Part shown: in pieces, positions 7,110 through 34,249 of the stretch | Layout of the letters: the number at the start of each line of letters is the position of its first letter | Position numbering within the stretch: the first letter of the stretch is position 1 | Virus record (IMG/VR): IMGVR_UViG_3300012954_000004 | Coordinates: 1-34,249 of that record | From: a virus | DNA: 34,249 bases | Reading direction: 5' to 3' (one strand) | Translations under genes and position numbers: made by a program | The notes under the pieces: generated by a model | Told to the model about the DNA's origin: nothing | Databases searched by the model: none | What the model saw: only the letters and a program-made list of their open reading frames with translations

Positions 7110-7195
7110 ATTTCCTTCCTTGTTTTTATATTTAAGACAAAGCGATACTACTGCGTTATAAACGCATTGATGTAATTTTGCTATAATCATACTAT

Positions 7196-7396
7196 TTAAT
7201 CGTCACAATTTTCGCAATGTTTCCAAGTTGGATTAAGTCCAACATATTCTTGTTCCGTCACTTGTTTGGGATTGTCCATTGCTTTTTTTATGTCAAAAGC
7301 AACTTCTTTAATTGCAGGTGGCAATCTTTTAACCCAATGACTTTTAAAGATATACTTCAAGACTTGTGTTTCCTCTGGATTTAATTTCAACATCAT
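7196..7396 (-). CDS. Hypothetical protein (66 aa)
   Basis: ATGA overlap with the upstream gene. The C-terminal HCENC motif may bind metal. Confidence 0.5.
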   Translation of the reverse strand: MMLKLNPEETQVLKYIFKSHWVKRLPPAIKEVAFDIKKAMDNPKQVTEQEYVGLNPTWKHCENCDD

Positions 7397-8625
7397 ATCG
7401 TTACCTCAAATATGGTTTTCTTTGGTTTTAGTTTATTGGAGGATTTAGCGTTATAACTTTCCAAATCGCTATCAATGTCGTAACACTCCTCTCCAACATA
7501 TTGTAAATCTATCTTCATAGCGTCTATATTTTTATCTTCGTGAAAAATATAAATATTCTGACTTGCCCTTCCTGATAGATTTAATCCTTTTTCGCTATAT
7601 TCATTAGCTCCAACTAATGAGCTGCTTCTACTTGCAATATCTCCTACTCTTGCAGAGTGTATGTGTCCTGATATAATATAATCAATTTGCACACCTCTAC
7701 CTGCGTATCTACCTTTTATTTGATTTACGCTTTTTTCGTATTGCGTAGTAAAACTACCGTTTCCGTGTAATAATAATAAATTCTGTCCTGCGACATTAAC
7801 TACTACTTCCGTAGGATCATCAACAACAAACTGCACATCTGTTGTTTTAAAGTAATGTCTTAGTATTTCAAAGATAACAAAGTCGTAATTGTCTGACGCC
7901 ATAAAGTCTGACCAACCCCAATCTTGTTTTAATCTACTTTCGTTTCCAGTTACACAAGCAACTGATACAGAATAATCTTGTCCGACATCAAATATAATTT
8001 GCTGTAATAAATCTACTGCTAAAAATACTGCTTTGGATCTATTCGTAGACATATTGAGCATTTCGTCTAATCTTCTGTCAGAGTTAATTAAATCTCCAGT
8101 AATCGCTATTAATACATTATCTATATCATATACTTTAAATATTTCTTTTGCTCTGCTCACATAATGTTTTAAGCGTCTACTAGCAACTTTGAAATCATAA
8201 TTGTTATGAGGTAGGGAAACAAGTTCGTTAAAATGTGTATCAGATATTTGCAGCACTCCAACACTTTTACCCTGCTTAACCTTTTTAAATTTAAATTCTG
8301 AAAAATTTTTATGTTGAAGTAATGCTTGAATATCAAATAATAGATTATGTACTGCGTTTTCATATCTTGCATATTCTCTAAATGATTTTCTTTCTATTCG
8401 ATTTACATCTTGGGCAGATTGTTTTTGTTTGGCAAGTTTTAAATTCTCTCTAACTAGCTCTATGTCATTTCTAATTGGATTTACGGTTTTACACTTACAG
8501 TCATTACAGAAATATTTTTGCTTTAAAGATCCGTCAGCATTTTTCTGACTACCTTTTTTAATCATATCCTTGCTACCACAATTAGGGCAAGATATAAAGT
8601 ATAATCCGTCCTCTGTAAGTTTCAT
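7393..8625 (-). CDS. Zinc-ribbon fused calcineurin-like metallophosphoesterase (SbcD/Mre11-like or phosphodiesterase)
   Basis: N-terminal CPNCGS...18...CNDCKC zinc ribbon. Then five phosphoesterase motifs in order: ISDTHFN, ITGDLINSD, TGNES, LLLHGNG, SGHIHS. Confidence 0.75.
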   Translation of the reverse strand: MKLTEDGLYFISCPNCGSKDMIKKGSQKNADGSLKQKYFCNDCKCKTVNPIRNDIELVRENLKLAKQKQSAQDVNRIERKSFREYARYENAVHNLLFDIQALLQHKNFSEFKFKKVKQGKSVGVLQISDTHFNELVSLPHNNYDFKVASRRLKHYVSRAKEIFKVYDIDNVLIAITGDLINSDRRLDEMLNMSTNRSKAVFLAVDLLQQIIFDVGQDYSVSVACVTGNESRLKQDWGWSDFMASDNYDFVIFEILRHYFKTTDVQFVVDDPTEVVVNVAGQNLLLLHGNGSFTTQYEKSVNQIKGRYAGRGVQIDYIISGHIHSARVGDIASRSSSLVGANEYSEKGLNLSGRASQNIYIFHEDKNIDAMKIDLQYVGEECYDIDSDLESYNAKSSNKLKPKKTIFEVTI

Positions 8626-8981
8626 TTTGTCAATCTCTTAAATCCATTGCTATTGTTAATCAAATCTAATAAATCCTCAAATTCAAAGCAAACCATTACT
8701 TTTGAATGGTTTTTTGAGAAAACTAACAACGGTTTTAAATCATCTGAATTTTGACAAGCTTGATCATAACACTTCCAAACATTCATTCGTTCAACTTTTT
8801 TACACTCTACTGCATAAGGAAAAGTATCTCTACCTGCTTTGGATAATATAATATCCATACCACTTTCTCCCATTACTGCTGTCTTTATGTCGTGTTCATT
8901 GATCCCTAATTTATCCATAATCATTTCTCTTACTTTATTCTGAAAATTTCTTCCTTTCGCTTTTGCACTACTTGGTTTCAT
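8622..8981 (-). CDS. PD-(D/E)xK nuclease, Holliday-junction resolvase-like (Hjc-like)
   Basis: 119 aa. It has an N-terminal KAKGRNFQNKV helix as in Hjc-type resolvases, then GESGMDIIL ... AVECKK (a D...ExK core). ATGA overlap with the downstream gene. Confidence 0.6.
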   Translation of the reverse strand: MKPSSAKAKGRNFQNKVREMIMDKLGINEHDIKTAVMGESGMDIILSKAGRDTFPYAVECKKVERMNVWKCYDQACQNSDDLKPLLVFSKNHSKVMVCFEFEDLLDLINNSNGFKRLTK

Positions 8982-9141
8982 TTATAAACTCTCCTTTTAC
9001 TATATCATCAATTATAAAGCCGATAGTCTGATTGCTTTCATATTTTTTAAAGTTTATCTTTTTTATTTTTTCTACTACTCTATTCCATTTAGTTGTATTT
9101 CTATGCAACTCTTGTTGAGTTTTTAATAATAGTGTCATCAT
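8968..9141 (-). CDS. Hypothetical 57-aa protein (not in ORF track)
   Basis: Hand translation gives MMTLLLKTQQELHRNTTKWNRVVEKIKKINFKKYESNQTIGFIIDDIVKGEFINETK-stop. ATGA coupling to the upstream sORF. It fills an otherwise empty gap. Confidence 0.4.
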   Translation of the reverse strand: MMTLLLKTQQELHRNTTKWNRVVEKIKKINFKKYESNQTIGFIIDDIVKGEFINETK

Positions 9142-9311
9142 TTGCATTCCTTTCTTGGTTGTAAATATTTGTCTAAATAATCATTTGATTTTACTTCTCC
9201 AACTACTTCGTTGGCTTTTTCAAACTCATCTTTTTTTTCATAAGTTCCATTGATATAGTCGTGAACAAAATCTAAAAGTATTGCCACTTTTTCTCTATCT
9301 GTTAATATCAT
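9138..9311 (-). CDS. Hypothetical 57-aa acidic protein (not in ORF track)
   Basis: Hand translation gives MILTDREKVAILLDFVHDYINGTYEKKDEFEKANEVVGEVKSNDYLDKYLQPRKECK-stop. ATGA overlap with the stop of 9308..10045. Confidence 0.45.
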   Translation of the reverse strand: MILTDREKVAILLDFVHDYINGTYEKKDEFEKANEVVGEVKSNDYLDKYLQPRKECK

Positions 9312-16493: not shown

Positions 16494-16633
16494 GAAAATC
16501 ATTATTTCAAGATCGCACTAGAAAATCGAACGGTGCAAAAAAAACTCGACAAGGTATGAGCCACAACACCAAGTTTGGAAATAAGCAATCTAAAAAACAC
16601 TATAAGAAGAAATATAGAGGACAAGGCAAATGA
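16490..16633 (+). CDS. 47-aa hyper-basic protein
   Basis: MRKSLFQDRTRKSNGAKKTRQGMSHNTKFGNKQSKKHYKKKYRGQGK-stop. ATGA overlaps at both ends. The track version starts at 16436, inside the previous gene. Confidence 0.5.
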   Translation: MRKSLFQDRTRKSNGAKKTRQGMSHNTKFGNKQSKKHYKKKYRGQGK

Positions 16634-17298
16634 GCAATCTTGAGCTAAAGAAAGCCAATCAAATGGCTGCTATTGATTTATTGATCCACAATCCAGAATT
16701 GTCTAAAAAAGAATTAGCAGAACATTTAAAGCTGGGAGAATCTACAATACATAACTGGTTTGCAGATGATAGATTTATTGATTTATACTATAAAAAATAT
16801 ATGGTTTCTTTCAACTCTAAGCTCCCAATGGTATTAGATAGTATGATAAGAGAGGCAGTTGAAGGTAATGTCCAGGCAGGGCGTCTAGTATTAGAACATT
16901 CAGGGAAACTTGTGAAAAACATTAATGTAACCGTAGATAGCCCATTCGAAAAGTTTTTGAAAGCAGAGCAGATAGACGCAGAAGATATTATAGACGCTGA
17001 AAGCGAAGAGATTAAAGAAAAGATAGAAACTCTTCCAGAAAGAAATAAGATAAATGACAAACCATTAAAGCGTAAGATAAGTGAAAGAAAAGCTATAGAA
17101 AGAATTAAAAAAGGCAAAAAGCCGTCGCAAAAAAAACTTAGAGAGGATAGAGCTAGTAGATATGCTTTATTGCAACGAGCTAAAAAGGTTGGATTAAAAC
17201 CATTGCCTTCTCGCCGTCCTACCAATAGTGAAAGAAGAAAGTGGTTAAAAAAATTAGAAGAATTAGAATCTAAGCAACGCCAAAATCTTCAGGCATAA
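16630..17298 (+). CDS. HTH protein, candidate small terminase subunit
   Basis: N-terminal HTH (LSKKELAEHLKLGESTIHNWF), a central helical region (MIREAVEGNVQAGRLVLEHSGK) and a Lys/Arg-rich tail. No other TerS candidate is present. It is not adjacent in orientation to terL. Confidence 0.4.
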   Translation: MSNLELKKANQMAAIDLLIHNPELSKKELAEHLKLGESTIHNWFADDRFIDLYYKKYMVSFNSKLPMVLDSMIREAVEGNVQAGRLVLEHSGKLVKNINVTVDSPFEKFLKAEQIDAEDIIDAESEEIKEKIETLPERNKINDKPLKRKISERKAIERIKKGKKPSQKKLREDRASRYALLQRAKKVGLKPLPSRRPTNSERRKWLKKLEELESKQRQNLQA

Positions 17299-17488
17299 TA
17301 TCATACTTTTCACATAGTTCTGACATTTCCATTGATATATAAGATATGTCGCTTTTGTCTATTTCTTTTGTTGATGTTTTATTTGGTGCTATTTTCATAC
17401 ATAAAAACCCTAGTAGTTCGTTATTAGCTTCAGATATTTCTCTAAGCTCTAAAACCATTAAATATAATTTCTGTATTAGATCTTTCAT
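17270..17488 (-). CDS. Hypothetical protein (72 aa), last gene of the inverted packaging module
   Basis: TAATG overlap with the upstream gene. Its 3' end overlaps the convergent TerS-like gene by 29 nt. Confidence 0.45.
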   Translation of the reverse strand: MKDLIQKLYLMVLELREISEANNELLGFLCMKIAPNKTSTKEIDKSDISYISMEMSELCEKYDIMPEDFGVA

Positions 17489-18036
17489 TATTTAAGTTTA
17501 CGCATACTTGTAGAAAGATTCCTTATAAATTCTTCAAAAAACTCATCTACTTCTTTATCAATGTGCTTTTCCATCTTCTCAAATGCTTCTTCATCAGATG
17601 TGAAAAAGAATTTTCTTTGTGGTATAGTAGAAAAATCTCCTCTATATCCCTTATATACAGACTTACCTCTTACCACTCCTGATACATTATCTTCTAAATG
17701 TTTTTCATACCTACCTAAAGGCGTTCCTACAACAGACTCTAAAAGCTGCTGACTTGTATGCGAATCAATACTTCTTTTCAATCTTCCAGTATCTGTCATA
17801 ATTTGATTTGATTTAATTTTATTTTGATTAAACTTATGCTTCATATTTAAATATCCAGAGGTTGATGGTGCAAATTTTTTACCATCTATATCTTTTTGCA
17901 ATTTAAATGTTTTCTTTACTTTGGCTTTTGCTGATTTTGCTAAATTGTCTAAGCTTTTAGCTAGGTTTGTTTTAAAAGCAGCTCCAGTAACTTTATGAAA
18001 GTTAAAATTAATCAGCGTTTCTATTTTCAGCTTCAT
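17488..18036 (-). CDS. Virion morphogenesis protein, Mu gpG-like
   Basis: DIDGKKFAPSTSGYLNMKHK, IMTDTGRLKRSI, VVGTPLGRYEKH and IPQRKFFFTSDEE parallel the Mu G family blocks (dG.pWaPLs..t...K / L..sG.L..Si / vGtn..Ya / iPaRpFlg). GGAG SD upstream. Confidence 0.55.
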   Translation of the reverse strand: MKLKIETLINFNFHKVTGAAFKTNLAKSLDNLAKSAKAKVKKTFKLQKDIDGKKFAPSTSGYLNMKHKFNQNKIKSNQIMTDTGRLKRSIDSHTSQQLLESVVGTPLGRYEKHLEDNVSGVVRGKSVYKGYRGDFSTIPQRKFFFTSDEEAFEKMEKHIDKEVDEFFEEFIRNLSTSMRKLK

Positions 18037-19342
18037 CGACTATCTCCAATTCATTTTTAGATTTATTAGCTTCTATGATTTGTTCTGCGTCAGCAATACT
18101 TAAATCTTTGTTTTCATCTGCTAATAATTGTGCTTGAGTAGTTAAGTTATGTTTTAATTTATATTCGTTCAACATAATCTTATCTTGAGTAGTCATTGGA
18201 TATTCGACTTCAGAGAAGTCTACTTTAAATTGAGAAACTTCTGGTAATCCCAAATTATTGGTTTGAGATAAAGCATATTCTACTTTATAAAAATCTTTTT
18301 CGTATTGACGATATAGTTCTTTGTCATCAATAAAATCTTCGTGGCGTTCCAAGTCTTTAATCATTAGAGAAATACCACTTGGTACTTCTCCACCTGATTG
18401 TGCGAAAGTAACAAATAAGTGATTATTCAACGCTACTAATTCTATTTGCCATTTAATATTTTCAATAACATCTCTTACATTTCCTTCTGGAGATACAATA
18501 TTATAATTACTTCCCTCTGGTAAAGTTAAAATTTCGTCTGATCCTGCTCTTACATTTGCGTTATCAGAAATTAATCCAGTAACTACTGGTTGCCCAAACA
18601 TTTGGAATCTCAAACCTAATTGCATCTCAGTCATAGTAATATTGATATGTTCATTTGCAGATACTAAATCAGAAGCACCTTCAACAAAGAAAGAATCTAA
18701 TTGTTCTTCTCTGTGTGTAAATACAAAAGGCAAAATACCTAAATTGTGCTGTACTTCTTCTAAAATATTGCCATTTTCATCAAATTTGATATGAGTGTCT
18801 TTATCCCAATAAGCATACATCAATTCATCAGTATCTGATAAATCTGCGTGTCCGTGCATCATAGGATATACAATAGATTCTGGCTTGTATGGATTATCTC
18901 CAAAATACGGCTCAAAATAATAAATAGGACGATATTCAAATCTTTGTTCTTCTTCATCATACATTACATAAGTTGCACAAGTACCAAGCAAGCGAGTCAT
19001 TCTTTCCATTTGCTTCATACGAGCATTCTTTACTGATGACAGCTCTAAATACTTTTCATTTACATTTCTCTTTGCCCCAATCGTGTAAATTTTTGACATA
19101 CGATTTACGAATTTTTTCACGATGTTGGTATTGTAGTGAGGAATTTCTTGGAATGCGTCAGATTTGAAATAATCTTCAATGTATTGATCGGTTAATGAGC
19201 CAGAATAATAATCTAAAAACTTTCTTACTTCTGCTCTACGAGCTTTTGCTTGTTCTTCTTTAAAATGTGTTAATGAATCTTGTATAATTTCTCTAGCTGT
19301 TAAAACCATTAAAGTATTCCTTTTATCGTGATATTCTTCCAA
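18008..19342 (-). CDS. Portal protein
   Basis: 444 aa, immediately downstream of terL with a 20-nt overlap. It has an N-terminal FLDYYSG motif and an acidic C-terminal tail. Assignment rests on size and position. Confidence 0.7.
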   Translation of the reverse strand: MEEYHDKRNTLMVLTAREIIQDSLTHFKEEQAKARRAEVRKFLDYYSGSLTDQYIEDYFKSDAFQEIPHYNTNIVKKFVNRMSKIYTIGAKRNVNEKYLELSSVKNARMKQMERMTRLLGTCATYVMYDEEEQRFEYRPIYYFEPYFGDNPYKPESIVYPMMHGHADLSDTDELMYAYWDKDTHIKFDENGNILEEVQHNLGILPFVFTHREEQLDSFFVEGASDLVSANEHINITMTEMQLGLRFQMFGQPVVTGLISDNANVRAGSDEILTLPEGSNYNIVSPEGNVRDVIENIKWQIELVALNNHLFVTFAQSGGEVPSGISLMIKDLERHEDFIDDKELYRQYEKDFYKVEYALSQTNNLGLPEVSQFKVDFSEVEYPMTTQDKIMLNEYKLKHNLTTQAQLLADENKDLSIADAEQIIEANKSKNELEIVDEAENRNAD

Positions 19343-20654
19343 TGAAATTACTTCTAATTGGGAATCTATTCAATATAAAATATCTAAAAGCATCGCAACC
19401 GTGTTCATAATATCCGTCCTTGATAGGATTATTAGAAATTGATTTGCCTTCCACGGCTTCTGGAAATCTATATCCTTCGAAATCCTCTGCAATACCTACG
19501 CACTTTTTATCTACTTTTATCCTTCTTAAACCATCTGCATTTTCAAAAAATCCACGACAATAACTTACACCAGATTGTATGTCGCGAGATAGTCTATCCA
19601 TTCTGTACTCCACATAAATTCCGTGCTTACGCAAAATATGTATATCTCCCATTCCAGATTGTCCTTGTACAAAACTACCTGCAGGATCGCCGTAATAGGT
19701 AATAACTGGATAGTTTTTCTTTTTTATCATTTCTGCTAATTTGTCGGTTGATATGTTTCTTTCGTGAATTATCTCATCAATAATATTAATGTGCCAATTA
19801 CCGTCTTGCTGAAATGTTTGAAACCATAGAACAGATGGCATTCTAAATCCAAAGTCCATAGAACAATATGTAGGAAGGTTTTCTTGATAAGGCACAACGC
19901 CCATATCTTTTTCTCTATCAAATGGATATACTCTTCCTTCCATTGAGGTAAACTTTGCAGCAAACTCTTGGTCGAATAATTCTTTGGACATATTTCTTTT
20001 TCTTTCTTGAATGAAAGAATCTTTTTTTCCTTCTGGAAACGCATATTGATTTTCCCAACTAGGAGATTGATGCGAATACCATTGAGGATCAGTTTGACCT
20101 AATAAAAACAAATCATATATCCAATTAAATCCTTCTGGGGTAGTAATAAAAATAGCTTTACCTTTTCTATCTACAAGCGTAGGAGATAAATACATATCCC
20201 ATATCCTTCTTGGCATTTTTGCTGCCTCGTCTATAATTAACAAATCTACACCTTCTCCGACCAAAGAGTCTGGATTCTCGCAAGACATTCCCTCCACAGT
20301 AGTTCCCCATTTGAATTTTATATACTGTTCTTTTTCTGATGCTCTGTCAATATCGCTTGCTTTACCTGCAACCATATCTTTCCAGATTTCTCTAAACATT
20401 AATCGTGATTTTTTATACGATAATCCTACTAGCCATATTTTTTTATTAGGTTGTGCTGCGTAAAATTCAGCTTCTCGAAATGCTGCAGTAGTTTTACCAT
20501 ATCTTCTACCACAGATATTTACAAAATAAGATGCGTCAGGTTTATCAGGAAAATGTAATTTTCTTTGCCCTTCGTGTGGTTGATATTCCATATAATCAAA
20601 CCATTTTTGCTTGAAATCAAACTCTTTTATTTTCTTCGACATTCTAATTGTCAT
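19323..20654 (-). CDS. terL: Terminase large subunit
   Basis: Walker A-like CGRRYGKTT, Walker B LLIIDEAA, coupling motif ITTPEG, and C-terminal nuclease-type acidic blocks (MDFGF, GDPAG, GCDAFRY). Confidence 0.9.
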   Translation of the reverse strand: MTIRMSKKIKEFDFKQKWFDYMEYQPHEGQRKLHFPDKPDASYFVNICGRRYGKTTAAFREAEFYAAQPNKKIWLVGLSYKKSRLMFREIWKDMVAGKASDIDRASEKEQYIKFKWGTTVEGMSCENPDSLVGEGVDLLIIDEAAKMPRRIWDMYLSPTLVDRKGKAIFITTPEGFNWIYDLFLLGQTDPQWYSHQSPSWENQYAFPEGKKDSFIQERKRNMSKELFDQEFAAKFTSMEGRVYPFDREKDMGVVPYQENLPTYCSMDFGFRMPSVLWFQTFQQDGNWHINIIDEIIHERNISTDKLAEMIKKKNYPVITYYGDPAGSFVQGQSGMGDIHILRKHGIYVEYRMDRLSRDIQSGVSYCRGFFENADGLRRIKVDKKCVGIAEDFEGYRFPEAVEGKSISNNPIKDGYYEHGCDAFRYFILNRFPIRSNFIGRISR

Positions 20655-21285: not shown

Positions 21286-22158
21286 ATGGCTAATGTAACA
21301 AAAACAACAGCTGCTAATTTTATACCAGAGATGTGGAGAGATGCTATTCTTGATTATGCTGAAAGAAAATTTCAGTTAAGAAATCAAGTATCAGACTTTT
21401 CATCTATGTTATCAAGTGGTGGCGACATTCTTAACATTCCAAAAGTTAAGGAAGAAACAGCAGCAGAAAAACAAGCTGGACAAAGTAATCCAGTAGCATA
21501 TTCTGCACAAACTGACGGAGTAGTTCAGTTAAATGTAGATCAGCACTTCTACGAAGCTAAGAGAATCGAGGACATCGTAAGAGTTCAAGAATCTGCCGAT
21601 TTATTCAATGCTTACGCACAATCAATGGGTTATGCTTTAGCAAAGAAAGTAGAAAGCTATATTGCTGGTGTAATCAAAGGAGCTTCTGCTAATAATGTAG
21701 GACTAGGTACAGACGACACAATGACGACTGCCCTATTCAGAGATGGTTTAGAAAAACTTCTAGACGGTGGACACGATTACGCAGACGGATCTTTCTATAT
21801 GTATGCTTCCCCTAAGTCATATATGTCTATGCTTAGTTTAGGAGAGTTTACTGAAGCTCAAAAAAGAGGAGATGAACAAAATCCTTTAGCTACTGGTAGA
21901 ATTATTTCTGCTTATGGCTTACCTCTGTATGCAAGTACAGACTGGAGTGAGGGTGGTACTTCAACTACACAAACTGCATCTATCTTTAGTAGAGATTCAG
22001 TTTACTTTGCACAACAAATTGCACCAAGAGTTCAAAGTGCTTATGACATTGATCACTTGGCTACATCTGTTGTAGCTGATGTATTATTTGGAGCTGTGTT
22101 AGCACAAGCTGCAGGTAACGCAGATGCTGGAATTGTTAATTTCGTAAATGTAGACTAA
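21286..22158 (+). CDS. Major capsid protein
   Basis: 290 aa after the scaffold gene, with an AAGGAGAG SD and a stable stem-loop downstream. Its N-terminus MANVTKTTAANFIPEMW is typical of phage major capsid proteins. No protease gene is nearby. Confidence 0.75.
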   Translation: MANVTKTTAANFIPEMWRDAILDYAERKFQLRNQVSDFSSMLSSGGDILNIPKVKEETAAEKQAGQSNPVAYSAQTDGVVQLNVDQHFYEAKRIEDIVRVQESADLFNAYAQSMGYALAKKVESYIAGVIKGASANNVGLGTDDTMTTALFRDGLEKLLDGGHDYADGSFYMYASPKSYMSMLSLGEFTEAQKRGDEQNPLATGRIISAYGLPLYASTDWSEGGTSTTQTASIFSRDSVYFAQQIAPRVQSAYDIDHLATSVVADVLFGAVLAQAAGNADAGIVNFVNVD

Positions 22159-23275: not shown

Positions 23276-26200
23276 ATGTCAAATACTATTAAGATTAAGA
23301 GAGGTACTAACCTCTCTAATGCAGGTACACCTGCAGCAGGAGAACTAATATATAAAAGCGACACAAACCAACTATTTGTTGGCGACGGAGAAACTGCAGC
23401 TACTGGATTAAATGCAATAGGTGGTAGTGGAGCAACTGGAGATATTGAGGGTGTAACTGCTGGTACTGGTTTATCTGGTGGTGGTACATCTGGAACAGTA
23501 ACTTTAAATATAGATTCAACAGTAGCTACACTTACTGGCTCACAAACACTTACTAACAAAACTTTAGCAAGTCCTACTTTTACTGGAGATGTAACATTTA
23601 ACGATGCTTCAACTCCACAATTAAACATAACAGATACTACAAATACTGTTAGTTTAAGACTTGCTGCAAGTGATACTTTAGGTACTGTTGGAACAACAAC
23701 AGATCATAATCTTAATATTGTTAGAAATAATGTTGGTAAAATTACATTTTATGATGCTTATACAATGCACAATAACGGTGGCAATGATTTAGATTTTAGA
23801 GCAAAAGATAGCAATGGCAATGTAGTATTTCAAGTAGATGCTGGAACATCAAAAACAATAATAACAACATTACAATCAGAAACTATTGATGTTGCTGGAG
23901 ATTTGACTCTTGATGCAGACGGAGCTGATGTAATTTTAAAAGACGGTGGTACAGAATACGGTAGATTAACACAACTATTAGGTGGACTTACTTTAAAATC
24001 TGGATCATCAGCAGCAAACGCTGTAATATTCTCAACAGACGGAGATGCTATATTTGCAGAAGATGTATCTATCTCTGCTGGTAAAACTTTTACATTTGAC
24101 GGTGTTGGACTAACAGCAGTTCAAACAGCAAGTGAATCTTTTGCAGATAACAATACTTCTTTAATGACTTCTGCAGCGATCAATGACAGAATAGAAAGTT
24201 TTGGTTATATAACTTCAGATACAAATACAGTAACTACTAATATAGCTGGTACTGGTATTGATGTAAGTTCTGGAACTGGTAATTCTACTATTAGTGTAGA
24301 TGTATCAGATTTTATGACTAATGGTAGCAATAATAGAATACTTACTGCTACTGGTACAGATGCTATGAACGCAGAATCTAATCTTACTTTTAATGGTAGC
24401 TTATTAACTAATACTGGAGATATTAGAATCCTTACTGGTAGTTTAGGTGTAAATACAAATGCAAATAGTGCAAATGGTAGAATAGCAGCAACATCACACA
24501 TTGAAGCTGGTGTAGGTAGTGGAGCTATTGGATTAACTATTAATGACGGATACGGAAATTCAAATCTTACTTTTAATCATACTGGAGGAGTACCAGAGCA
24601 AAATGGACAATCTGCAAGAATAGAAGTAAATACTGATGCTACATCTTCTGAGGGATTGATGTCATTTGAAACTTCTGCTTCTGATGTAACTGCTGGATCT
24701 GCTCAAGGTCTATCAAGTTCTATGAATCTTGCTCACAGCTATATGGAAATTCCTTATGTACTAAGACATATGGGAGATACAGATACCTATCTTCAATTTG
24801 ATAATAATAGATTAAGACTGTATGCTGGTGGTACTTTAGTTATTGACTCTAATAATACCTATTTAACTTCATCTGGTATATTAGATCAAGATGATATGTC
24901 ATCAAATAGTGCAACTGCCGTAGCATCACAACAAAGTATTAAAGCGTATGTAGACGCAGAAGTAGCTGGTATTGTAAATTCAGCTCCAGCAGCTTTGAAT
25001 ACATTAGACGAATTAGCAGCAGCTTTAGGAGATGACGCTAACTTCGCAACAACAACATCTACTTCATTAGGGAATAGATTAAGAGTAGATACAGCTTCAC
25101 AAGGATTAACTGGCACACAACAAGCCAATGCGATCACTAACTTAGGTATTACTGCAACCAAAGCAGAATTAAACTTCGTAGACGGAGTAACATCTGCTAT
25201 ACAAACACAATTAAATGCAAAGCTATCTACATCTGGAACAGCAGCAAATTCTACTTTATTAAATAATTTAGGAGCTGGTAGTTTTTTAAGAAGTGATACT
25301 GGAGATACTGCTGCTGGTAATATTAGTTTTACTGGTAAATTACTGGGGAATCAAGGTACAACAGCTATACTTAATGGAGCAACGGTTACAAATGTAAATA
25401 CTGGATTTACCAATGATATATCAACTGGTAAAAATTCTGGATTACAACCATTTAGATATAGCAACAATTCTTCAAATACTCCATTAGGTGGTGGTGGCTC
25501 AATGGCTAACAACGCTAATTGGGGATTGAGTTTATACTCACACGGAACTGGTGGTAGTGGTAACTACGGATTACAGATGTCTGGTGGAGATAATGACAAT
25601 CAATTATTTTTTATAAGAAGAGTAACTAATGGTAGTTTTGGTAGTTGGTTTGAGATGTGGCATAGTGGTAATGACGGAGCTAATAGTGGGTTAGATGCAG
25701 ATTTATTAGACGGAAATCACGCATCTGCATTTCTAACTTCTGTTCCTAATCATAGTGGTAATTTAATCACTAGTGGTACAGTAGCAGCAGCAAGAATTGC
25801 TAATTTAGCAGCAACTAAGATTACTTCTGGTACTTTAAATAACGCAAGACTTGATACAAATATGCAATTAACTGGTGCAGCTCCAAGATATAGATTGCAA
25901 GAGTCTGGTGTAACAAATACTCCTAATTGGTGGATGATTGCAGACGGTGGTAATTATAGTATTAGATTAAACAATACTGGAACTTATCCATTACAAATTT
26001 CAACCAATTCAAGTAATAATGCAGTTGAAACTATTACTCTTGGATACAATACTAATGTAAGTGGTAATATAGCAGTAACTGGAACAGTAGACGGTAGAGA
26101 TGTTGCTTCTGACGGAAGTAAATTAGACGGAATAGAAAGTGGAGCTACTGCAGACCAAACAGCAGCACAAATACTAACTGCTATTAAAACAGTAGACGGT

Positions 26201-27475
26201 GGTGGAAGTGGTTTAGACGCTGACACATTAGACGGACTTCAGCTAAACTCTTCTACAAGAAATAATCAAGCAAATACTGTTGTAAGAACTCAATCTAATG
26301 GATATGCTTTATTTGGTTGGATAAATACTACTTCTGGGAATACTACAAACGCATCTACTGATTATTATGTAAACACCAATGACGGATATATAAGAAAGAA
26401 AACTTTAGCAAATGTAAGAACTGAAATTATGGGAGTTAGTTCTGGATCTTCATTTATAAGAAGCGATGCTAATGACACAGCAACAGGAACTATAGATTTT
26501 ACTGGCAGAGTTAATATAGGAAACTCTTTAACACGCCCAGATGCTTTAGATAGTGATGCAGATGCACACGCAAGAATTGGTGGTTCAGATGTTTACCTAT
26601 ATGTAGCTTCATTAAATTCTACTGGTGGTTATAAAGTTGCATTACAATCTGCAAGAGGTTCTGACTTTGCTGCTTTTGGTTTAAATTTACAACCACACGG
26701 TGGAACTTTAGAAAGAGCAGGAAATACTATTTGGGACGCAGGTAATGACGGAAGTGGTAGTGGATTAGATGCTGATAAACTTGACGGAGTTCAAGGTAGT
26801 TCATTTCTAAGAAGTGATGCCACAGATACTGCAAGTGGAGCAATAACTTTTACAGCAAGAACTACCTTTGATGATAGTGGAGCTGACGGTGTTTTATTCA
26901 AAGCATCAGATAATGCTAATAATTCTTCCAGAGCATTTTTTGACGGAACTTCTACTTCTTGTATATTCCAAGAGGGTAATGATTTAAGTTTTAGAATTAA
27001 TGCAACTACTGGTAGTAGTAGTGGAACTGAGCGTATGTATATTAGAGAAGCTGGTATGGCATTAAGTAATTCTTCCTTAGGCGTTAATGCTTCTATTAAT
27101 GGTACAAATGGTATGATACACGCAAGTAACGATATTGTTGCATTTGCATCAGATAAAAGATTAAAAGAAAATATACGCCCTATAGAAAATGCTTTAGACA
27201 AAGTAAGTAAGTTGTCTGGATTTGTTTATAACTGGAACGAACTTGCTAACGAAAAAGCAGAGTACGATATGGATAAAGACTATGTTGGTGTATATGCACA
27301 AGATGTAGAAGAAGTACAACCAGAAGCAGTTGATTTAGCTCCATTTGATAATGACGGAGAAGATAACTCAATATCTGGAGAAAACTATTTAACAGTACAA
27401 TATGAGAAGTTAGTACCATTACTAATTGAATCTATTAAAGAATTAAAAGAAGAAATAGAAGAGTTAAAAAAATGA
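23276..27475 (+). CDS. Large tail fibre (1399 aa) with C-terminal S74 intramolecular-chaperone autoprocessing domain
   Basis: N-terminus MSNTIKIKRGT...AAGELIYKSDTNQLFVGDG. Three GSGLDAD.LDG and three SF(L/I)RSD..DTA.G.I.FTG modules. The C-terminus ASDKRLKENI...VYNWN...GVYAQDVEEV.PEAV...LTVQYEKLVPLLIESIKELKEEIEELKK is the endosialidase-chaperone (peptidase S74) pattern, with the cleavage Ser codon at 27149. Confidence 0.85.
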   Translation: MSNTIKIKRGTNLSNAGTPAAGELIYKSDTNQLFVGDGETAATGLNAIGGSGATGDIEGVTAGTGLSGGGTSGTVTLNIDSTVATLTGSQTLTNKTLASPTFTGDVTFNDASTPQLNITDTTNTVSLRLAASDTLGTVGTTTDHNLNIVRNNVGKITFYDAYTMHNNGGNDLDFRAKDSNGNVVFQVDAGTSKTIITTLQSETIDVAGDLTLDADGADVILKDGGTEYGRLTQLLGGLTLKSGSSAANAVIFSTDGDAIFAEDVSISAGKTFTFDGVGLTAVQTASESFADNNTSLMTSAAINDRIESFGYITSDTNTVTTNIAGTGIDVSSGTGNSTISVDVSDFMTNGSNNRILTATGTDAMNAESNLTFNGSLLTNTGDIRILTGSLGVNTNANSANGRIAATSHIEAGVGSGAIGLTINDGYGNSNLTFNHTGGVPEQNGQSARIEVNTDATSSEGLMSFETSASDVTAGSAQGLSSSMNLAHSYMEIPYVLRHMGDTDTYLQFDNNRLRLYAGGTLVIDSNNTYLTSSGILDQDDMSSNSATAVASQQSIKAYVDAEVAGIVNSAPAALNTLDELAAALGDDANFATTTSTSLGNRLRVDTASQGLTGTQQANAITNLGITATKAELNFVDGVTSAIQTQLNAKLSTSGTAANSTLLNNLGAGSFLRSDTGDTAAGNISFTGKLLGNQGTTAILNGATVTNVNTGFTNDISTGKNSGLQPFRYSNNSSNTPLGGGGSMANNANWGLSLYSHGTGGSGNYGLQMSGGDNDNQLFFIRRVTNGSFGSWFEMWHSGNDGANSGLDADLLDGNHASAFLTSVPNHSGNLITSGTVAAARIANLAATKITSGTLNNARLDTNMQLTGAAPRYRLQESGVTNTPNWWMIADGGNYSIRLNNTGTYPLQISTNSSNNAVETITLGYNTNVSGNIAVTGTVDGRDVASDGSKLDGIESGATADQTAAQILTAIKTVDGGGSGLDADTLDGLQLNSSTRNNQANTVVRTQSNGYALFGWINTTSGNTTNASTDYYVNTNDGYIRKKTLANVRTEIMGVSSGSSFIRSDANDTATGTIDFTGRVNIGNSLTRPDALDSDADAHARIGGSDVYLYVASLNSTGGYKVALQSARGSDFAAFGLNLQPHGGTLERAGNTIWDAGNDGSGSGLDADKLDGVQGSSFLRSDATDTASGAITFTARTTFDDSGADGVLFKASDNANNSSRAFFDGTSTSCIFQEGNDLSFRINATTGSSSGTERMYIREAGMALSNSSLGVNASINGTNGMIHASNDIVAFASDKRLKENIRPIENALDKVSKLSGFVYNWNELANEKAEYDMDKDYVGVYAQDVEEVQPEAVDLAPFDNDGEDNSISGENYLTVQYEKLVPLLIESIKELKEEIEELKK

Positions 27476-27518: not shown

Positions 27519-28640
27519 ATGACTTTACAAGCATCTGGAGAAATAAAGTTTAGTGAGATAAATACTGAGTTTGGTAGAACTTCTACTACTGCTAATACTT
27601 CATTAGAAGATTTATCTGACGGAACTGTTGCAACTATCAATACTGTAAATGATAGTGCAGATCGTCCAGACGGCTCTGCTCCACACGCTATAAGCGAGTT
27701 CTATAGTTATGACCACGATGCAGCAGCAGCTAATGCTTCTTTTGGTACTTGGAGTGATACAACAATCAGATTTATTGGATTAAGTCCAGGCGACAATATT
27801 GCTAATCACGCAGTTACTACCAACTCAATGACTGATGCAAGTGGCACTATGAGTGTTACAAACAGCGTAACATCTGGAACAGCTAAAGGTAGTGTTAGAG
27901 TTGCCTTAGGAGAAGATAGCGACCCTGGTACAAATAGTAGTAATACTGTATTTGATAGTAAAATGAAAACACTTAATGGCGAGTATGTGTTCAATAGTAT
28001 TACTTTTACAGGAAGCTGTGTTGCTAATGCAAGATTTTGTTTTTTACCACACTCAGCAGTTACTGAAAGTGTTATGAGAGATATAACATTTACAAACAAT
28101 AACACTTCTAATACTACAATGACTTTACAGACAAGTGTTACAAGTTTTGGTGGATTTTGTGTACACGAAGCAGTACCAGTAAATTGTATTGATTACTATA
28201 AACATATTAGCGAACTAGAAGTTGGCGATATGATTATGTCTTATAATTTTGAAACAAATTCTGTTGAAGAAGTAGAAATACTAAAAATAGAAAAACCGAT
28301 GCACAGCGACTTAGTGGTTTATAGGTTTGAAGATATGGAAGATATACAATATACACACGGAAATACATCTACTATAAATAGAGGATTATCAATTACCAAA
28401 GATCACCCTATATACAAAGAGGACGGAACTATGGTATGTTTAGATCCTGAAAAAGCAAAAGAATTATATGGATTAGACGCAGAAGAAATACAAAAAGGAG
28501 ATAGAATTAGATTTATGGATTCTATTAAAGTAATAGATAAATACTTATTAAGTCCTGACGAAACAGAAACTTATACTATTCTGACAAAGAATAATAACTT
28601 TTTTGCAGGTGGAGTATTAGTACACTCGGAGATTTCATAA
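27519..28640 (+). CDS. Fibre-like virion protein with C-terminal Hint (Hedgehog/intein-type) domain
   Basis: The N-terminus SGEIKFSEINTEFGR...HAISEFYSYD is a common fibre-protein opening. Residues 214-370 show CVHEAVPV, ELEVGDMIMSY, SITKDHPIY and FFAGGVLVHS, then EIS-stop. Confidence 0.65.
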   Translation: MTLQASGEIKFSEINTEFGRTSTTANTSLEDLSDGTVATINTVNDSADRPDGSAPHAISEFYSYDHDAAAANASFGTWSDTTIRFIGLSPGDNIANHAVTTNSMTDASGTMSVTNSVTSGTAKGSVRVALGEDSDPGTNSSNTVFDSKMKTLNGEYVFNSITFTGSCVANARFCFLPHSAVTESVMRDITFTNNNTSNTTMTLQTSVTSFGGFCVHEAVPVNCIDYYKHISELEVGDMIMSYNFETNSVEEVEILKIEKPMHSDLVVYRFEDMEDIQYTHGNTSTINRGLSITKDHPIYKEDGTMVCLDPEKAKELYGLDAEEIQKGDRIRFMDSIKVIDKYLLSPDETETYTILTKNNNFFAGGVLVHSEIS

Positions 28641-28912
28641 TGGCTATTACATACAGAGGCATAAGATTTTCAGGTTACAATAAACCTAAGAGAACACCTA
28701 AACACCCTAAGAAGTCACACGCTGTATTAGCGAAATCAGGTGGTAAGATTAGACTGATTAGGTTTGGACAACAAGGAGTACGAGGAGCAGGAAAGAATCC
28801 TAGAACTGCTGCACAAAGAGCTAGGAGAAGATCGTTTAAAGCTAGACACAGAAAAAATATCGCCAGAGGTAAGATGAGTGCTGCTTACTGGGCGAACAAA
28901 GTAAAATGGTAA
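28640..28912 (+). CDS. 90-aa strongly basic conserved-looking protein (no Asp/Glu)
   Basis: GYNKPKRTPKHPKKSHAV...IRFGQQG...RRRSFKARHRKNI...SAAYWANKVKW. By hand count, 27 of 90 residues are K/R and none are acidic. TAATG overlap with the upstream gene. Confidence 0.6.
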   Translation: MAITYRGIRFSGYNKPKRTPKHPKKSHAVLAKSGGKIRLIRFGQQGVRGAGKNPRTAAQRARRRSFKARHRKNIARGKMSAAYWANKVKW

Positions 28913-29233: not shown

Positions 29234-29620
29234 ATGAATTATTACTATGGTATGGTATGGTTGCTTGGATTATTGTTATGGCAATCGCCCTTACACTCGC
29301 AGTCCGTTAGATTAGACAGCTTTCAAGATGTACAGTTGTTAAATGTGCAGAATTGTTCAGTTGTGCAAGTAAACGCAAGTTGGAATCATCAAAACAGAGT
29401 TAAGATTGAGAAACTAGCAAATATATGTTATGTAGCAGAAATAGACATAGAAGATAAAGTTATTGGTGCTACAATAGCTAAAGAGTGGAACATAACAATA
29501 GTTCCTACCATCATTGTTTTAGAGAAAGGTAAAGAGGTAAAAAGATTTGTTCCTGGTATTAGTATGAGGTTTGACGAAAATACTATTATCAATGATGTAA
29601 GAAAAGAGGTAAGAGAGTGA
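29234..29620 (+). CDS. Secreted thioredoxin-fold protein lacking the CxxC active site
   Basis: Signal-like N-terminus MVWLLGLLLWQSPLHSQS. VVQVNASWNHQN aligns to the F.A.WCGPC block, with Cys replaced by Asn/Gln. IVPTIIVLEKGKEVKRFVPG matches the cis-Pro/beta-strand block of thioredoxins. Confidence 0.6.
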   Translation: MNYYYGMVWLLGLLLWQSPLHSQSVRLDSFQDVQLLNVQNCSVVQVNASWNHQNRVKIEKLANICYVAEIDIEDKVIGATIAKEWNITIVPTIIVLEKGKEVKRFVPGISMRFDENTIINDVRKEVRE

Positions 29621-29799
29621 AGAAGAAAAGAAAATCGAGAGTCAATCAAGCAGGAAACTACACCAAACCTGGATTAAGAAAAAGAATATTCCAGCGTATT
29701 TTACGAGGTAACAAAGGTGGCAATCCTGGACAATGGAGTGCTAGAAAAGCACAGATGTTAGCACTCGCCTACAAAAGAGCAGGTGGTGGTTATAGATAA
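29617..29799 (+). CDS. 60-aa basic protein (GTG start), first half of a split conserved module
   Basis: GTGA start/stop overlap with the upstream gene, and AGAGG upstream. Motif YTKPGLRKRI...GNKGGNPGQWSARKAQMLALAYKRAGGGY. Confidence 0.5.
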   Translation: MKKKRKSRVNQAGNYTKPGLRKRIFQRILRGNKGGNPGQWSARKAQMLALAYKRAGGGYR

Positions 29800-30038
29800 T
29801 GGCTCTCAAGAAATCACAGAAAAGTCTACGCAGGTGGACAAAACAAAAATGGCGTACCAAATCTGGTAAGCCGTCGTCTAAAACTGGAGAACGATATTTA
29901 CCAGAACGATTGTTAAAATCAATGACTTCTTCAGAGTACGCATACGAAACTCGTAAGAAAAGAAAAGCAAAGAAGGCAGGAAAGCAACGAGCCAAGTATT
30001 CCAAAAAAACAAGAAAAAAGATGCGTAGATATTCATAA
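29799..30038 (+). CDS. 79-aa basic protein, second half of the split module
   Basis: TAATG overlap with the upstream gene. Motif SLRRWTKQKWRTKSGKPSSKTGERYLPE, then a KKRKAKKAGKQRAKYSKKTRKKMRR tail. Confidence 0.5.
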   Translation: MALKKSQKSLRRWTKQKWRTKSGKPSSKTGERYLPERLLKSMTSSEYAYETRKKRKAKKAGKQRAKYSKKTRKKMRRYS

Positions 30039-30079: not shown

Positions 30080-30262
30080 ATGAAACTAGAAGAACAACAA
30101 TCCAAACTAAAAGAATTGGTAGATCAATTCAATCAATCCAATGAGCAAATTCAAATGCTACAAGCAAATAACGCAGAATTGCGTATGCAAATAGCTAAAC
30201 AACAAGGAGTTATAGAAGCACTACAATCTTTAGATAAAGGCAAAAAAAATGCCAAAACTTAA
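30080..30262 (+). CDS. Small coiled-coil protein (60 aa)
   Basis: AAGGAA SD upstream, heptad-rich QQSKLKELVDQFNQSNEQIQMLQANNAELRMQIAKQQ. It overlaps the holin start by 14 nt. Confidence 0.5.
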   Translation: MKLEEQQSKLKELVDQFNQSNEQIQMLQANNAELRMQIAKQQGVIEALQSLDKGKKNAKT

Positions 30263-30620
30263 TGTAGTAGCAGGAATAATTGATAAAGTAGTAGATAAAA
30301 TCGATGACTTTACTCTGGATAAAACAGAAAAAGCAGAACTTATACAAGACATCAACAAAGCTCAAATTGAAGTTAATAAAGTTGAAGCCAATAGCAATAG
30401 TTTGTTTGTTGCAGGTTGGCGTCCTTTTGTTGGTTGGACTTGTGGAGTAGCATTATGTTATCACTTCGTACTACAACCGTTCTTACTTTTTCTTGTATAT
30501 TCATTTGGCTATCAAGTGGATTTACCAGTATTCGATATGAGTACATTGACAACAATACTTCTCGGACTCTTAGGTTTGGGGGGAATGCGTTCATTCGAGA
30601 AAGTAAAGAAATCAGCGTAA
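30249..30620 (+). CDS. Holin, three-TM GTA-type holin family
   Basis: An N-terminal amphipathic region is followed by LFVAGWRPFVGWTCGVALCYHFVLQPFLLF (the WRP..GW motif of the 3-TM holin family) and two more hydrophobic spans. It is directly upstream of the endolysin, with a TAATG overlap. Confidence 0.65.
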   Translation: MPKLNVVAGIIDKVVDKIDDFTLDKTEKAELIQDINKAQIEVNKVEANSNSLFVAGWRPFVGWTCGVALCYHFVLQPFLLFLVYSFGYQVDLPVFDMSTLTTILLGLLGLGGMRSFEKVKKSA

Positions 30621-31093
30621 TGGAATTTGATGATATTATAGAAAAAGTGTTACAACACGAAGGAGGATATGTCAATGACAAAGACGATCTTGGTGGAGAA
30701 ACTAACTATGGTATCACAAAACGCTTTTATCCACACTTAGATATTAAAAATCTCACAAGAGAACAAGCAAAAGAAATATACTACAAAGACTATTGGATTC
30801 CTTCCAAAGCGTCTAAACTTCCTACAGACTTAAGATACGCTTACTTTGATTGTGTAGTTAATACTGGACAATATCGTGCAGTAAAGATATTGCAACAAGC
30901 GTGTAATAATAAAAATACATTTGAAATAAAAGAGGACGGCAAGATTGGTGCTGCAACAATATCTGCTTGTAAAAAATTAGAGGCAGATAGATTTATTTCA
31001 TATAGAATTTTATTCTATTCTTTGCTAATTTCAGATAACCCTACGCAAGAAAAATTTTGGTATGGTTGGTATAAAAGAGCCAAAGGAGAATAA
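30620..31093 (+). CDS. Endolysin, glycoside hydrolase family 108 N-domain plus PG_binding_3-type C-domain
   Basis: VLQHEGGYVNDKDDLGGETNYGITKRFYP is the GH108 signature including the catalytic Glu. EDGKIGAATISAC is the peptidoglycan-binding repeat. Start set to ATG 30620, overlapping the holin stop. Confidence 0.85.
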   Translation: MEFDDIIEKVLQHEGGYVNDKDDLGGETNYGITKRFYPHLDIKNLTREQAKEIYYKDYWIPSKASKLPTDLRYAYFDCVVNTGQYRAVKILQQACNNKNTFEIKEDGKIGAATISACKKLEADRFISYRILFYSLLISDNPTQEKFWYGWYKRAKGE

Positions 31094-33166: not shown

Positions 33167-34210
33167 ATGGCAAATTTAAGTACAGCTTATTCTCCAAAAG
33201 AATTTGAGTTAGCTATTGCTCACGAAGGAGTAGTAGGAACAGCACAAGCTGGTGGATCTAACGACACAAATTATAAATTAATTAACATTGATTCAATCGA
33301 GATGCCTTCATTGAATCCACAACAAGTTTTAGATGTAAGACACGGAGCAGGTAGAACATTAAAAACAGTAGATATGTTTTTAAATAATAACCTAACCGTA
33401 AAAGAAATTAGTTTTTCAGGAATCGCAGATTCTACTATTTTACCTATGTTAGTTCAAAACATTACACAAGACGCAAGTGGTGCTTCTTCTATACCTGCAT
33501 CTTACAATCCTTCAGAATTAAAAAAAGGAGATACTTCATCAACGGCTAATATTGCAACTTTTAGTGTTTTACTTCGTTCTCCAGAAGCTAATAATTCTAT
33601 GTTGTTTAAAGGGTGTGTATTGACATCTTTGACATTAAACGGAGATATTAGTGAAGAGTCAGGAAGAATTAAAATGTCAGGAACTTTTAAAACTGGTATG
33701 AAGCCAATTTTTAGTAGCAACTTAAATCCAACTGCAAGAACTCACTTTAACTTAAATTACTTTACAACAGATTACGCAGATGACGCTTCTACTACAGATG
33801 CAGATATTGTAATTGCTGGTGTAACTTCCCCTATTCTTAAATCATTTAGCTGTACCATTGAAAACGATGTTCAGTTTATGGGTTTTGATCAGGACGGAGA
33901 TCATCAAATTATTGCAAGAGCATTACCTGAAGCATCAGTTACATTTGAATCAGTTGTAAAATACGATGCAGACACAGACGGTTTAGTTGCATCTTTTGAA
34001 CAGCAATCTACTGGAACTCTTGCAAACTCACTAACTGCAAAAACTAGTGCAAGTGGAGATGTTCCTAGAAATATAGATTTTTCAATACCAAAAGCAATTT
34101 TAACAGATGTATCTTTTTCTGAAGAAGAAGCTATGTTTTTGTCAATAAGTCAAAAAGCAGTAGCAGGTACTACTGGAGATTTAATTGCTATCACTATTGA
34201 AGCAGATTAA
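33167..34210 (+). CDS. Major tail (tube) protein
   Basis: 347 aa, immediately upstream (through the circular junction) of the chaperone pair and tape measure. AGAGG SD upstream. Composition is beta-rich. Assignment is positional. Confidence 0.6.
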   Translation: MANLSTAYSPKEFELAIAHEGVVGTAQAGGSNDTNYKLINIDSIEMPSLNPQQVLDVRHGAGRTLKTVDMFLNNNLTVKEISFSGIADSTILPMLVQNITQDASGASSIPASYNPSELKKGDTSSTANIATFSVLLRSPEANNSMLFKGCVLTSLTLNGDISEESGRIKMSGTFKTGMKPIFSSNLNPTARTHFNLNYFTTDYADDASTTDADIVIAGVTSPILKSFSCTIENDVQFMGFDQDGDHQIIARALPEASVTFESVVKYDADTDGLVASFEQQSTGTLANSLTAKTSASGDVPRNIDFSIPKAILTDVSFSEEEAMFLSISQKAVAGTTGDLIAITIEAD

Positions 34211-34249
34211 ACAAATAAAGGATAAACAATGTCTAAAAAAATAACACTC
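34127..34249. repeat. Terminal direct repeat, copy 2 (identical to 1..123)
   Basis: Exact 123-nt match to the window start. Confidence 0.95.
34229..34249 (+). CDS. Partial CDS: duplicated first 7 codons of the tail assembly chaperone gene (same as 103..123)
   Basis: ATGTCTAAAAAAATAACACTC encodes MSKKITL, identical to 103-123. Confidence 0.85.

Follow-up and report, generated by a model that had tools for sequence, protein, structure and literature searches.

Hint (Hedgehog/intein) domains in which the set of splicing residues is incomplete, such as bacterial intein-like (BIL) domains and the Hog domains of Hedgehog proteins, carry out cleavage rather than splicing (PMC7664689, PMC7765530). 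A-type BIL domains have a highly conserved C-terminal His-Asn (PMC7765530), and B-type BIL domains, as summarized there from Amitai et al. (2003), have all of the intein N-terminal motifs, no intein-type C-terminal motif and specific motifs of their own. Pretoxin HINT domains (PF07591) have been proposed to be autoproteolytic (PMC3417536). The mentions of Hint domains in phages that we found in the literature concern inteins in terminases, and full-text searches returned no description of a C-terminal Hint domain on phage fibre-type proteins. Here we describe such a domain, encoded at positions 28158–28628 (plus strand) of a 34,249-nucleotide stretch of DNA from a marine phage (IMG/VR record IMGVR_UViG_3300012954_000004, positions 1 to 34,249; hereafter the window), at the end of a gene (27519–28640) that directly follows a tail-fibre gene.

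We think that the 373-amino-acid (aa) product of this gene is probably the precursor of a small, fibre-associated, adhesin-like protein, and that its Hint domain would act solely in cis, restricted to its own N-terminal end, releasing a 22.4-kDa product. The open reading frame (ORF; 40.8 kDa, plus strand, with a TAA stop) has its own ribosome-binding site, GAGGA, within GAGGAAAGAAATG. Its 381 homologs are about 354–386 aa long and all metagenomic. The precursor is ordered as an N-terminal anchor (residues 1–66, 27519–27716), a hypervariable β-sandwich rich in Ser, Thr and Asn (residues 67–207, 27717–28139), a Gly-rich linker, TSFGGF (residues 208–213, 28140–28157), and the terminal Hint domain, which is of an Asn-less type (residues 214–370). 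The last residue of the linker, Phe213 (position −1), is predicted to become the C-terminus of the cleaved protein, and the next codon (28158–28160) is that of Cys214, residue 1 of the Hint domain and the candidate nucleophile of block A. Block B, with its TxxH motif and Asp295, lies at residues 293–296 (T-K-D-H, 28395–28406). Blocks F and G occupy residues 351–370 (TYTILTKNNNFFAGGVLVHS, 28569–28628), with His369 in the penultimate position and Ser370 where an intein would have its terminal Asn, and a tail of three residues, EIS (371–373, 28629–28637), follows with no C-extein. The computed masses are 22,376 Da for residues 1–213 and 18,406 Da for the Hint part, which has a lower GC content than the N-terminal part (0.30 versus 0.37).

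A first-pass annotation, made from the letters without database searches, had placed a Hint domain at residues 214–370, and each motif on which it relied is in place: 28158–28628 translates exactly to CVHEAV...GGVLVHS, GGFCVHEAVPV lies at residues 211–221, the second quoted motif (ISELEVGDMIMSY) at residues 230–242, SITKDHPIY, which holds the block B TxxH, at residues 291–299 and FFAGGVLVHS at residues 361–370, after which only EIS and the stop codon remain. Single-sequence scans of the window protein with Pfam, PHROGs and NCBIfam gave no match to a Hint domain, so the annotation had recognized what standard libraries miss. At the Hint domain Pfam returned only a sub-threshold match to AXH, and the curated intein models TIGR01445 and TIGR01443 did not score on the window protein. 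Searching with single sequences was little better: phmmer against the Protein Data Bank (PDB) reached intein-like chains at E values of about 0.2–1 only, and a word-indexed search with the Hint domain alone returned mostly fragments.

A profile built from an alignment of 27 homologs with 40–90% identity (A1) identified the domain. Against 177,635 PDB sequences it matched the NrdJ-1 intein (E 6e-7), the BIL2 domain of Tetrahymena BUBL (5e-5) and, at 1e-3, the Aes123 PolB1 intein. The order of blocks B, F and G is collinear with that of the PDB inteins: residues 293–296 align to TPDH of the NrdJ-1 intein, residues 351–370 form an ungapped alignment with TYDIQTSTHNFFANDILVHA in an N-to-A mutant chain of NrdJ-1, and Ser370 takes the position of the terminal Asn. 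An AlphaFold model based on the A1 alignment has pLDDT values of 80–94 over residues 70–373 and low values over the anchor. In Foldseek searches, the last ~160 residues of this model aligned with BIL2 and with gp41-1, BIL and DnaB inteins at E values of 4e-10 to 1e-5, a probability of 1.00 and target-normalised TM scores of 0.73–0.84; a RecA intein also matched. The closest solved structure is BIL2 (6y75/6tmm; E 4e-10, TM 0.80–0.84), and the TM scores for the gp41-1 intein, the Clostridium thermocellum BIL (2lwy) and the NpuDnaB intein are 0.81, 0.82 and 0.82. Many proteins of uncultured Caudovirales with Hint domains match among viral models, and some uncultured-phage proteins carry the automatic UniProt label ‘Hint domain containing’. 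The fold, the block A Cys and the block B TxxH are thus all present, and residues 214–370 are confirmed as a member of the Hint superfamily.

The AXH family (PF08517, ataxin-1/HBP1) has sub-threshold to moderate matches on the Hint domain in 8 of the 27 homologs (best 5.5e-8) and also on canonical tandem Hints (locus L011). AXH as the identity of the domain was rejected, because its model also overlays Hints elsewhere, the tandem ones included, and appears to cross-match Hint-fold sequences.

The class-1 mini-inteins known from phages and marine metagenomes (NrdJ-1, gp41-1 and DnaB) are the best sequence matches, with blocks A, B, F and G collinear. Unlike them, the window Hint has no terminal Asn, no +1 nucleophile, no C-extein and no insertion in a conserved host protein. 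Classical class-1 inteins were excluded as its class because Ser370 occupies the Asn position, a C-extein is absent and Hint-less homologs (below) end at the junction rather than continuing. BIL domains (the A-type 2lwy and the BIL2 of 6y75/6tmm) share the common Hint fold (TM 0.80–0.84), the N-terminal Cys and the block B TxxH, and like the window Hint they sit in variable, non-housekeeping proteins and not at the conserved sites of enzymes. Whereas BILs are internal, the window Hint lies at the extreme C-terminus with nothing downstream to release, and unlike BILs it occurs in phage fibre-associated proteins. The window Hint ends in an invariant His-Ser-Glu, whereas A-type BILs end in His-Asn. 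An A-type assignment fails on this point (His-Ser here and Asp-Ser in relatives), although related Hints in tandem arrays do end in His-Asn. Set against the summarized description of B-type BILs, the lack of His-Asn agrees, but block G is otherwise intein-like (NFFAGGVLVH).

The pretoxin HINT model is the only curated Hint model to score on family members (6 of the 27 A1 homologs, best 7e-6). It gives no match to the window protein at E ≤ 1, and no domain follows the window Hint. A pretoxin HINT precedes the C-terminal toxin that it releases, whereas the part released by the window Hint would be N-terminal; membership was rejected given the sub-threshold score and the empty downstream side. 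Hedgehog Hog domains are likewise C-terminal Hints with a Gly-rich junction and a Cys nucleophile, and by the N-to-S acyl shift alone, the chemistry predicted for the window Hint, they free an N-terminal functional domain. Hog domains have a sterol- or adduct-recognition region after the Hint, whereas three residues follow the window Hint and recruitment of a second substrate is not evident. In sequence and structure the window Hint is nearer to inteins and BILs than to Hog, and its setting is viral and prokaryotic. Membership of the sterol-transferring Hog type was rejected on the missing recognition region (three residues here, 0–25 in relatives).

To count conserved residues, we aligned 183 terminal-type domains, including 56 distant 50%-identity representatives, to a hidden Markov model (HMM) of the Hint part. 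The residues for N-terminal cleavage are kept in 99–100% of them: Cys214, Thr293 and Asp295 in 181 of 183 each and His296 in all 183. The N-to-S acyl shift in inteins, BILs and Hog domains uses such residues (PMC7664689, PMC7765530). Positions invariant in A1 include C214, T293, D295, H296, P297, T351-Y352-T353, N358, N360, F361, H369, S370 and E371. At the C-terminal end, position 369 is His or Asp among the terminal-type relatives and position 370 is Ser in 166 of the 183 domains; the tail after the Hint is 0–25 aa long in all of them. The +1 residue is an invariant Glu in A1, and a large sister subgroup that ends in ..LVDSVI has Val where the window protein has E371. The window protein has neither a terminal Asn, nor a +1 Cys, Ser or Thr, nor a continuing host protein. 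Splicing and Asn-driven C-terminal cleavage are therefore excluded, as first proposed from the His-Ser end and the missing C-extein, and only N-terminal cleavage or thioester chemistry remains.

The upstream gene (23276–27475, plus strand) encodes a 1,399-aa tail fibre with an N-terminal Mtd_N domain (Pfam, 1e-7) and a C-terminal S74 chaperone (Pfam Peptidase_S74, 8e-17), matches PHROG tail-fibre families and carries the S74 catalytic motif SDKRLK at residues 1292–1297 (27149–27166). We compared gene order in 15 context loci (L001–L010 and L012–L016). In 13 of these, as in the window, a fibre ending in S74 lies upstream of the gene, directly or after one ORF of 77–112 aa, and the stop of the fibre gene and the start of its partner frequently overlap. 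The first-pass annotation had described two neighbouring genes with different C-terminal modules, S74 in one and a Hint, predicted to be self-cleaving, in the other; this arrangement proved to be general across the loci. In loci that reach far enough, small ORFs and then a GTA_holin_3TM holin lie downstream. The two exceptions are L013, which has small fibre-like ORFs and no S74 fibre upstream, and L015, in which the upstream gene is cut and has no annotation.

The terminal Hint is one of three states of the same protein slot. An exhaustive search by HMMER, with the profile of A1 as the query, yielded 2,573 representatives at E ≤ 0.001, and 146 of the listed representatives were newly fetched. 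A single terminal Hint without His-Asn occurs in 47 of the 146, and 46 among the listed representatives have the N-terminal anchor without any Hint. Complete Hint-less homologs (18 proteins of ~185–216 aa) align end to end with residues 1–213 and finish within the Gly-rich stretch that leads up to Cys214 in the window protein (..TSGGGR, ..SGGGGGGR, ..FGGLAP and ..GGGGGGFP). These are true stops with unrelated genes downstream, as checked for the Hint-less copies in L005, L006, L007 and L012. In L006 the corresponding position, with the S74 fibre on one side and the holin on the other, is taken by a Hint-less ortholog (P0147, 49% identical); in L007 the Hint-less P0173 follows an S74 C-terminus; and in L012, from Flavobacterium sp. 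LPB0248, a 192-aa Hint-less copy follows a 1,159-aa S74 fibre. In these homologs the Hint has not become a separate ORF: in L006 and L007 the ORFs downstream show no relation to it, and a scan with the Hint HMM gives no match there. Locus L005 has a Hint-bearing copy after its first fibre and a Hint-less copy after its second. The presence of two separate fibre–partner pairs (16564–19553; a 1,413-aa S74 fibre with the Hint-bearing partner and a 797-aa S74 fibre with the Hint-less one) suggests that each fibre has its own partner protein. The Hint-less N-domains P0150, P0151 and P0163 are 60%, 59% and 52% identical to Hint-bearing ones, compared with 47–55% among Hint-less ones. Because Hint-less N-domains nest among Hint-bearing ones, the module has been gained or lost repeatedly.

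In three further proteins with the same anchor (P0269, P0171 and P0194), Peptidase_S74 occupies the slot of the Hint, after the Gly linker. P0269 scores 26.4 bits against a Pfam cutoff of 22 and has the junction GGGFGVP|SDRRLKTNI, and the S-D-x-R-x-K motif is kept in all three. S74 is a C-terminal, self-removing module of phage fibres and endosialidase tailspikes, and acts in the trimer. The two modules share a position, but their folds are unrelated, and S74 uses a Ser-Lys dyad (SD.R.K) where the window Hint would use Cys thioester chemistry. By synteny and by its homologs, the window protein belongs to a class of fibre-type proteins with a dispensable or replaceable C-terminal module, the removal of which is predicted here. 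Terminal-type Hints also follow unrelated N-terminal parts, in P0144 (765 aa), P0165 (fn3) and P0169 (MAM), and P0144 and P0169 likewise come directly after S74 fibres.

Two further observations concern these searches. First, 43 of the 146 newly fetched representatives have tandem canonical Hints: two to seven per protein, with His-Asn ends, one to four residues apart (...LVHNK(GG)CF.AGT...) and with no cargo between them. Examples are P0146, P0149, P0160, P0174, P0187, P0200, P0235 and P0240, and locus L011 at 5335–9192; one such protein has 4,119 aa. NCBIfam intein models recognise these tandem Hints. On a 33-kb contig, P0149 lies after a 1,309-aa Laminin_G_3 protein and before glycosyltransferases. 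Second, two loci are from Flavobacterium: the pair in L012 (2522–6579, on the chromosome of strain LPB0248) consists of an S74 fibre and a Hint-less protein with the N-terminal anchor, and L013 (6001–6711, F. sharifuzzamanii) has an anchor protein with an fn3-like part among small fibre-like ORFs. These loci may be prophages or phage-derived elements, and hint at Bacteroidota as hosts of this phage group.

Taken with the Hint-less and S74-bearing homologs and with purifying selection on the Hint (below), which back the earlier proposal that only N-terminal thioester or cleavage chemistry is left, these data point to the following course. The precursor would fold first. Cys214 would then attack the Phe213–Cys214 peptide bond in an N-to-S acyl shift, helped by Thr293, His296 and probably Asp295, and the thioester would be resolved by water or a small thiol. 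The products would be a 213-aa, 22.4-kDa protein ending in ...SFGGF-COOH and an 18.4-kDa Hint by-product. The Hint would act as a C-terminal pro-domain that is present while the protein folds or assembles and is removed afterwards, a counterpart of the S74 chaperone. We infer that cleavage occurs and that the mature protein resides on the virion with the fibre; simple release is favoured over transfer of the thioester because Hint-less orthologs exist.

Several points weigh against this proposal. In many inteins the thioester hydrolyses slowly when unassisted, and a nucleophile or catalyst may be required. The invariance of Ser370-Glu371 is not explained by a simple loss of function and could reflect a more specific chemistry. 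It is unclear why many orthologs manage without a Hint if it is merely a disposable pro-domain. The assignment of the N-domain to a virion or receptor-binding protein is drawn only from gene order and from the types and modularity of the domains. Cultured relatives are also lacking: no usable match emerged when 50,697 phage records were searched by tblastn with the whole protein, the N-domain and a Hint-less homolog as queries, the sole hit being a marine single-cell viral contig (E 9e-3).

The first-pass annotation had seen the N-terminal 213 aa as a Ser/Thr/Asn-rich fibre or receptor-binding module. The composition holds (Ser, Thr and Asn make up 39% of residues 67–213), as does a presumed binding role, but there is no fibre shaft here: residues 1–213 form a small, modular protein, presumably for binding, in which a 66-aa anchor, the presumed docking segment, precedes an Ig/PapD-like β-sandwich. 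In A1 the anchor is the best-conserved part (77% mean pairwise identity, compared with 39% for residues 67–207 and 54% for the Hint); its consensus reads M.L..SG.I....I..E.G...SL..LSDGT.ATINT.N...RPDG.APH...EFY.Y.H. A broader form of the consensus is M.[LV].[SA]SG.I...I..E...SL..LSDGT..TINT.N...RPDG.APH...EFY.Y.H, and M1, G7, E17, L29, N41, P50, P55, H56, E60 and Y64 are invariant, Hint-less homologs included. The pLDDT of the anchor is low in both models, and we presume that residues 1–66 are a docking segment. The same anchor heads proteins with a ConA-like lectin in the middle (Laminin_G_3; P0250 and P0221) and proteins with fn3 repeats there (P0216, P0255 and P0280). In the window protein the middle is modelled as all-β (pLDDT 80–90), and residues 67–207 are presumably the binding surface. 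A Foldseek search with the N-domain alone gave no function, because it returned only generic Ig/PapD-like sandwiches (pilins, adhesins and accessory domains of glycosidases) at TM ≤0.41.

The position directly after a fibre gene, frequently with overlapping stop and start, would also suit a tail-fibre assembly factor of the Tfa/gp38 type rather than a virion adhesin, a factor that the Hint would regulate or remove, with the Hint chemistry unchanged. Known fibre assembly proteins have a conserved N-terminal and a variable C-terminal part, which is the layout found here. The partner fibres have an intramolecular chaperone of their own in S74, however, and other family members have Laminin_G_3 lectin, fn3 or S74 modules, which are typical of fibres and spikes. 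We therefore regard an assembly factor as somewhat unlikely, and read the N-domain, from its gene order and modular make-up, as a probable virion or receptor-binding protein.

Selection on the gene bears on whether the Hint is removed at all. Nei–Gojobori estimates from the six pairwise comparisons among the window gene and its three close relatives in L014–L016 gave dN/dS values of 0.08–0.17 for the Hint region in all six pairs and of 0.15–0.57 for the β-sandwich in the same pairs. The Hint is thus under strong purifying selection in close relatives. A domain that is better conserved than the one preceding it (54% mean identity, dN/dS ~0.1) and in which the penultimate residue varies between His and Asp in relatives could instead be a non-cleaving Hint, kept in the mature 373-aa protein for structure, oligomerisation or binding. 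A structural role would not, however, need the N-cleavage residues, Cys1 and T-x-D-H, to be the best-kept positions, at 99–100%. It also sits poorly with Hint-less orthologs that end precisely at the predicted scissile junction, and with a slot that otherwise holds a known self-removing module. We consider retention of the Hint unlikely.

Hedgehog is esterified to cholesterol, and here too the Phe213 thioester might be captured instead of hydrolysed, by a Lys or an N-terminal Ser or Cys of the partner fibre or another virion protein, or by a lipid or glycan, which would fix the adhesin in place covalently. Among solved structures the nearest is BIL2 from Tetrahymena BUBL (Foldseek E 4e-10, TM 0.83). 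It links a ubiquitin-like domain to lysines, and the isopeptide bond forms without ATP (PMC8616854). H369-S370-E371 is invariant in A1 at the active-site end, which decay of the C-terminal motif does not explain, and the one-to-one pairing with an S74 fibre, with two such pairs in L005, supplies a candidate acceptor. Yet Hint-less orthologs in the same slot end at the same junction, so covalent attachment is not essential to the role of the family. The alternative module in the slot, S74, only cleaves; the three residues after the Hint leave no adduct-recognition region of the kind that binds sterol in Hedgehog; and Val replaces E371 in the large sister subgroup. Transfer of the thioester is in our view quite unlikely. 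Its strongest form, in which the Hint is a one-shot, ATP-independent ligase that welds a receptor-binding tip onto the fibre, the virion or a molecule of the host surface, with Ser370-Glu371 positioning the acceptor, is a little more doubtful again. We know of no precedent for covalent, intein-driven virion assembly.

That the Hint is a functionless remnant of a degenerate intein or other selfish element, as its intein-like blocks A, B, F and G, lost terminal Asn and lower GC content (0.30 versus 0.37) might suggest, is hardly credible and is effectively refuted by the dN/dS of 0.08–0.17 and by catalytic residues kept over 183 diverse domains, which show that it is not decaying, and is opposed as well by the absence of a homing endonuclease and of a downstream extein, by the 2,573 representatives at E ≤ 0.001 and by the single terminal Hints without His-Asn in 47 of 146 newly fetched ones.

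If cleavage by the Hint does occur, the maturation of phage fibres and adhesins would use two unrelated disposable C-terminal modules, the Ser-Lys dyad of S74 and a Cys-thioester Hint, which replace each other at one position within a single protein family. The known biology of viral Hint domains, hitherto that of selfish inteins in genes for replication and packaging, would then be widened. If transfer were the true chemistry, the system would be a viral counterpart of Hedgehog cholesteroylation or of the isopeptide conjugation by BUBL/BIL2. The profile defines a large unannotated group (2,573 representatives at E ≤ 0.001), the terminal type of which is missed by curated models. The analysis also brings out a widespread partner protein of fibres that has a conserved anchor at its N-terminus. 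Both definitions would improve the annotation of receptor-binding modules in marine viromes. A Hint that only cleaves at its N-terminus, or generates a thioester, with a tail of 0–3 residues could serve as a self-cleaving tag or in expressed protein ligation.

The window begins and ends with an exact 123-nt direct repeat (1–123 is identical to 34127–34249) and is therefore a complete phage genome of 34,126 bp, either circular in the assembly or with direct terminal repeats. Close relatives of this phage are contigs of 34,161–34,348 bp. The genome has a G+C content of ~33% and divergent early and late modules. Pfam and PHROGs scans place the terminase at 19323–20654 on the minus strand; the major capsid protein is at 21286–22158, the holin at 30249–30620 and the endolysin at ~30629–31093. 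The terminase and capsid proteins have merely 22–31% identity to those of cultured phages. Two large ORFs adjoin at the start of the late region (799–5336). The product of the first (753 aa) has weak matches of the tape-measure kind (phrog_973, 1.9e-15) and that of the second (758 aa) has no match; in a podovirus-like particle, the two could be ejection proteins or proteins of the virion interior.

A 128-aa protein encoded at 29234–29620, in the interval that separates the Hint gene from the lysis cassette, has a hydrophobic, signal-like stretch at its N-terminus and weakly matches the thioredoxin fold (Pfam E 0.009), with no visible CxxC. Three small ORFs in the same interval (28640–28912, 29617–29799 and 29799–30038; 90, 60 and 79 aa) encode extremely basic, Lys/Arg-rich proteins. 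For the 90-aa protein there is a match to phrog_7595 (5.5e-37) and a weak one to part of phrog_220, a minor head protein/DNA pilot family. We rejected this ORF as an extein reached by read-through or coupling: its start overlaps the stop of the Hint gene here (TAATG), but gaps of 55–115 nt separate the two in L002 and L004, and Ser370 precludes splicing. In the close relatives L014–L016, the 90-aa ORF likewise follows the Hint gene with the same overlapping stop and start.

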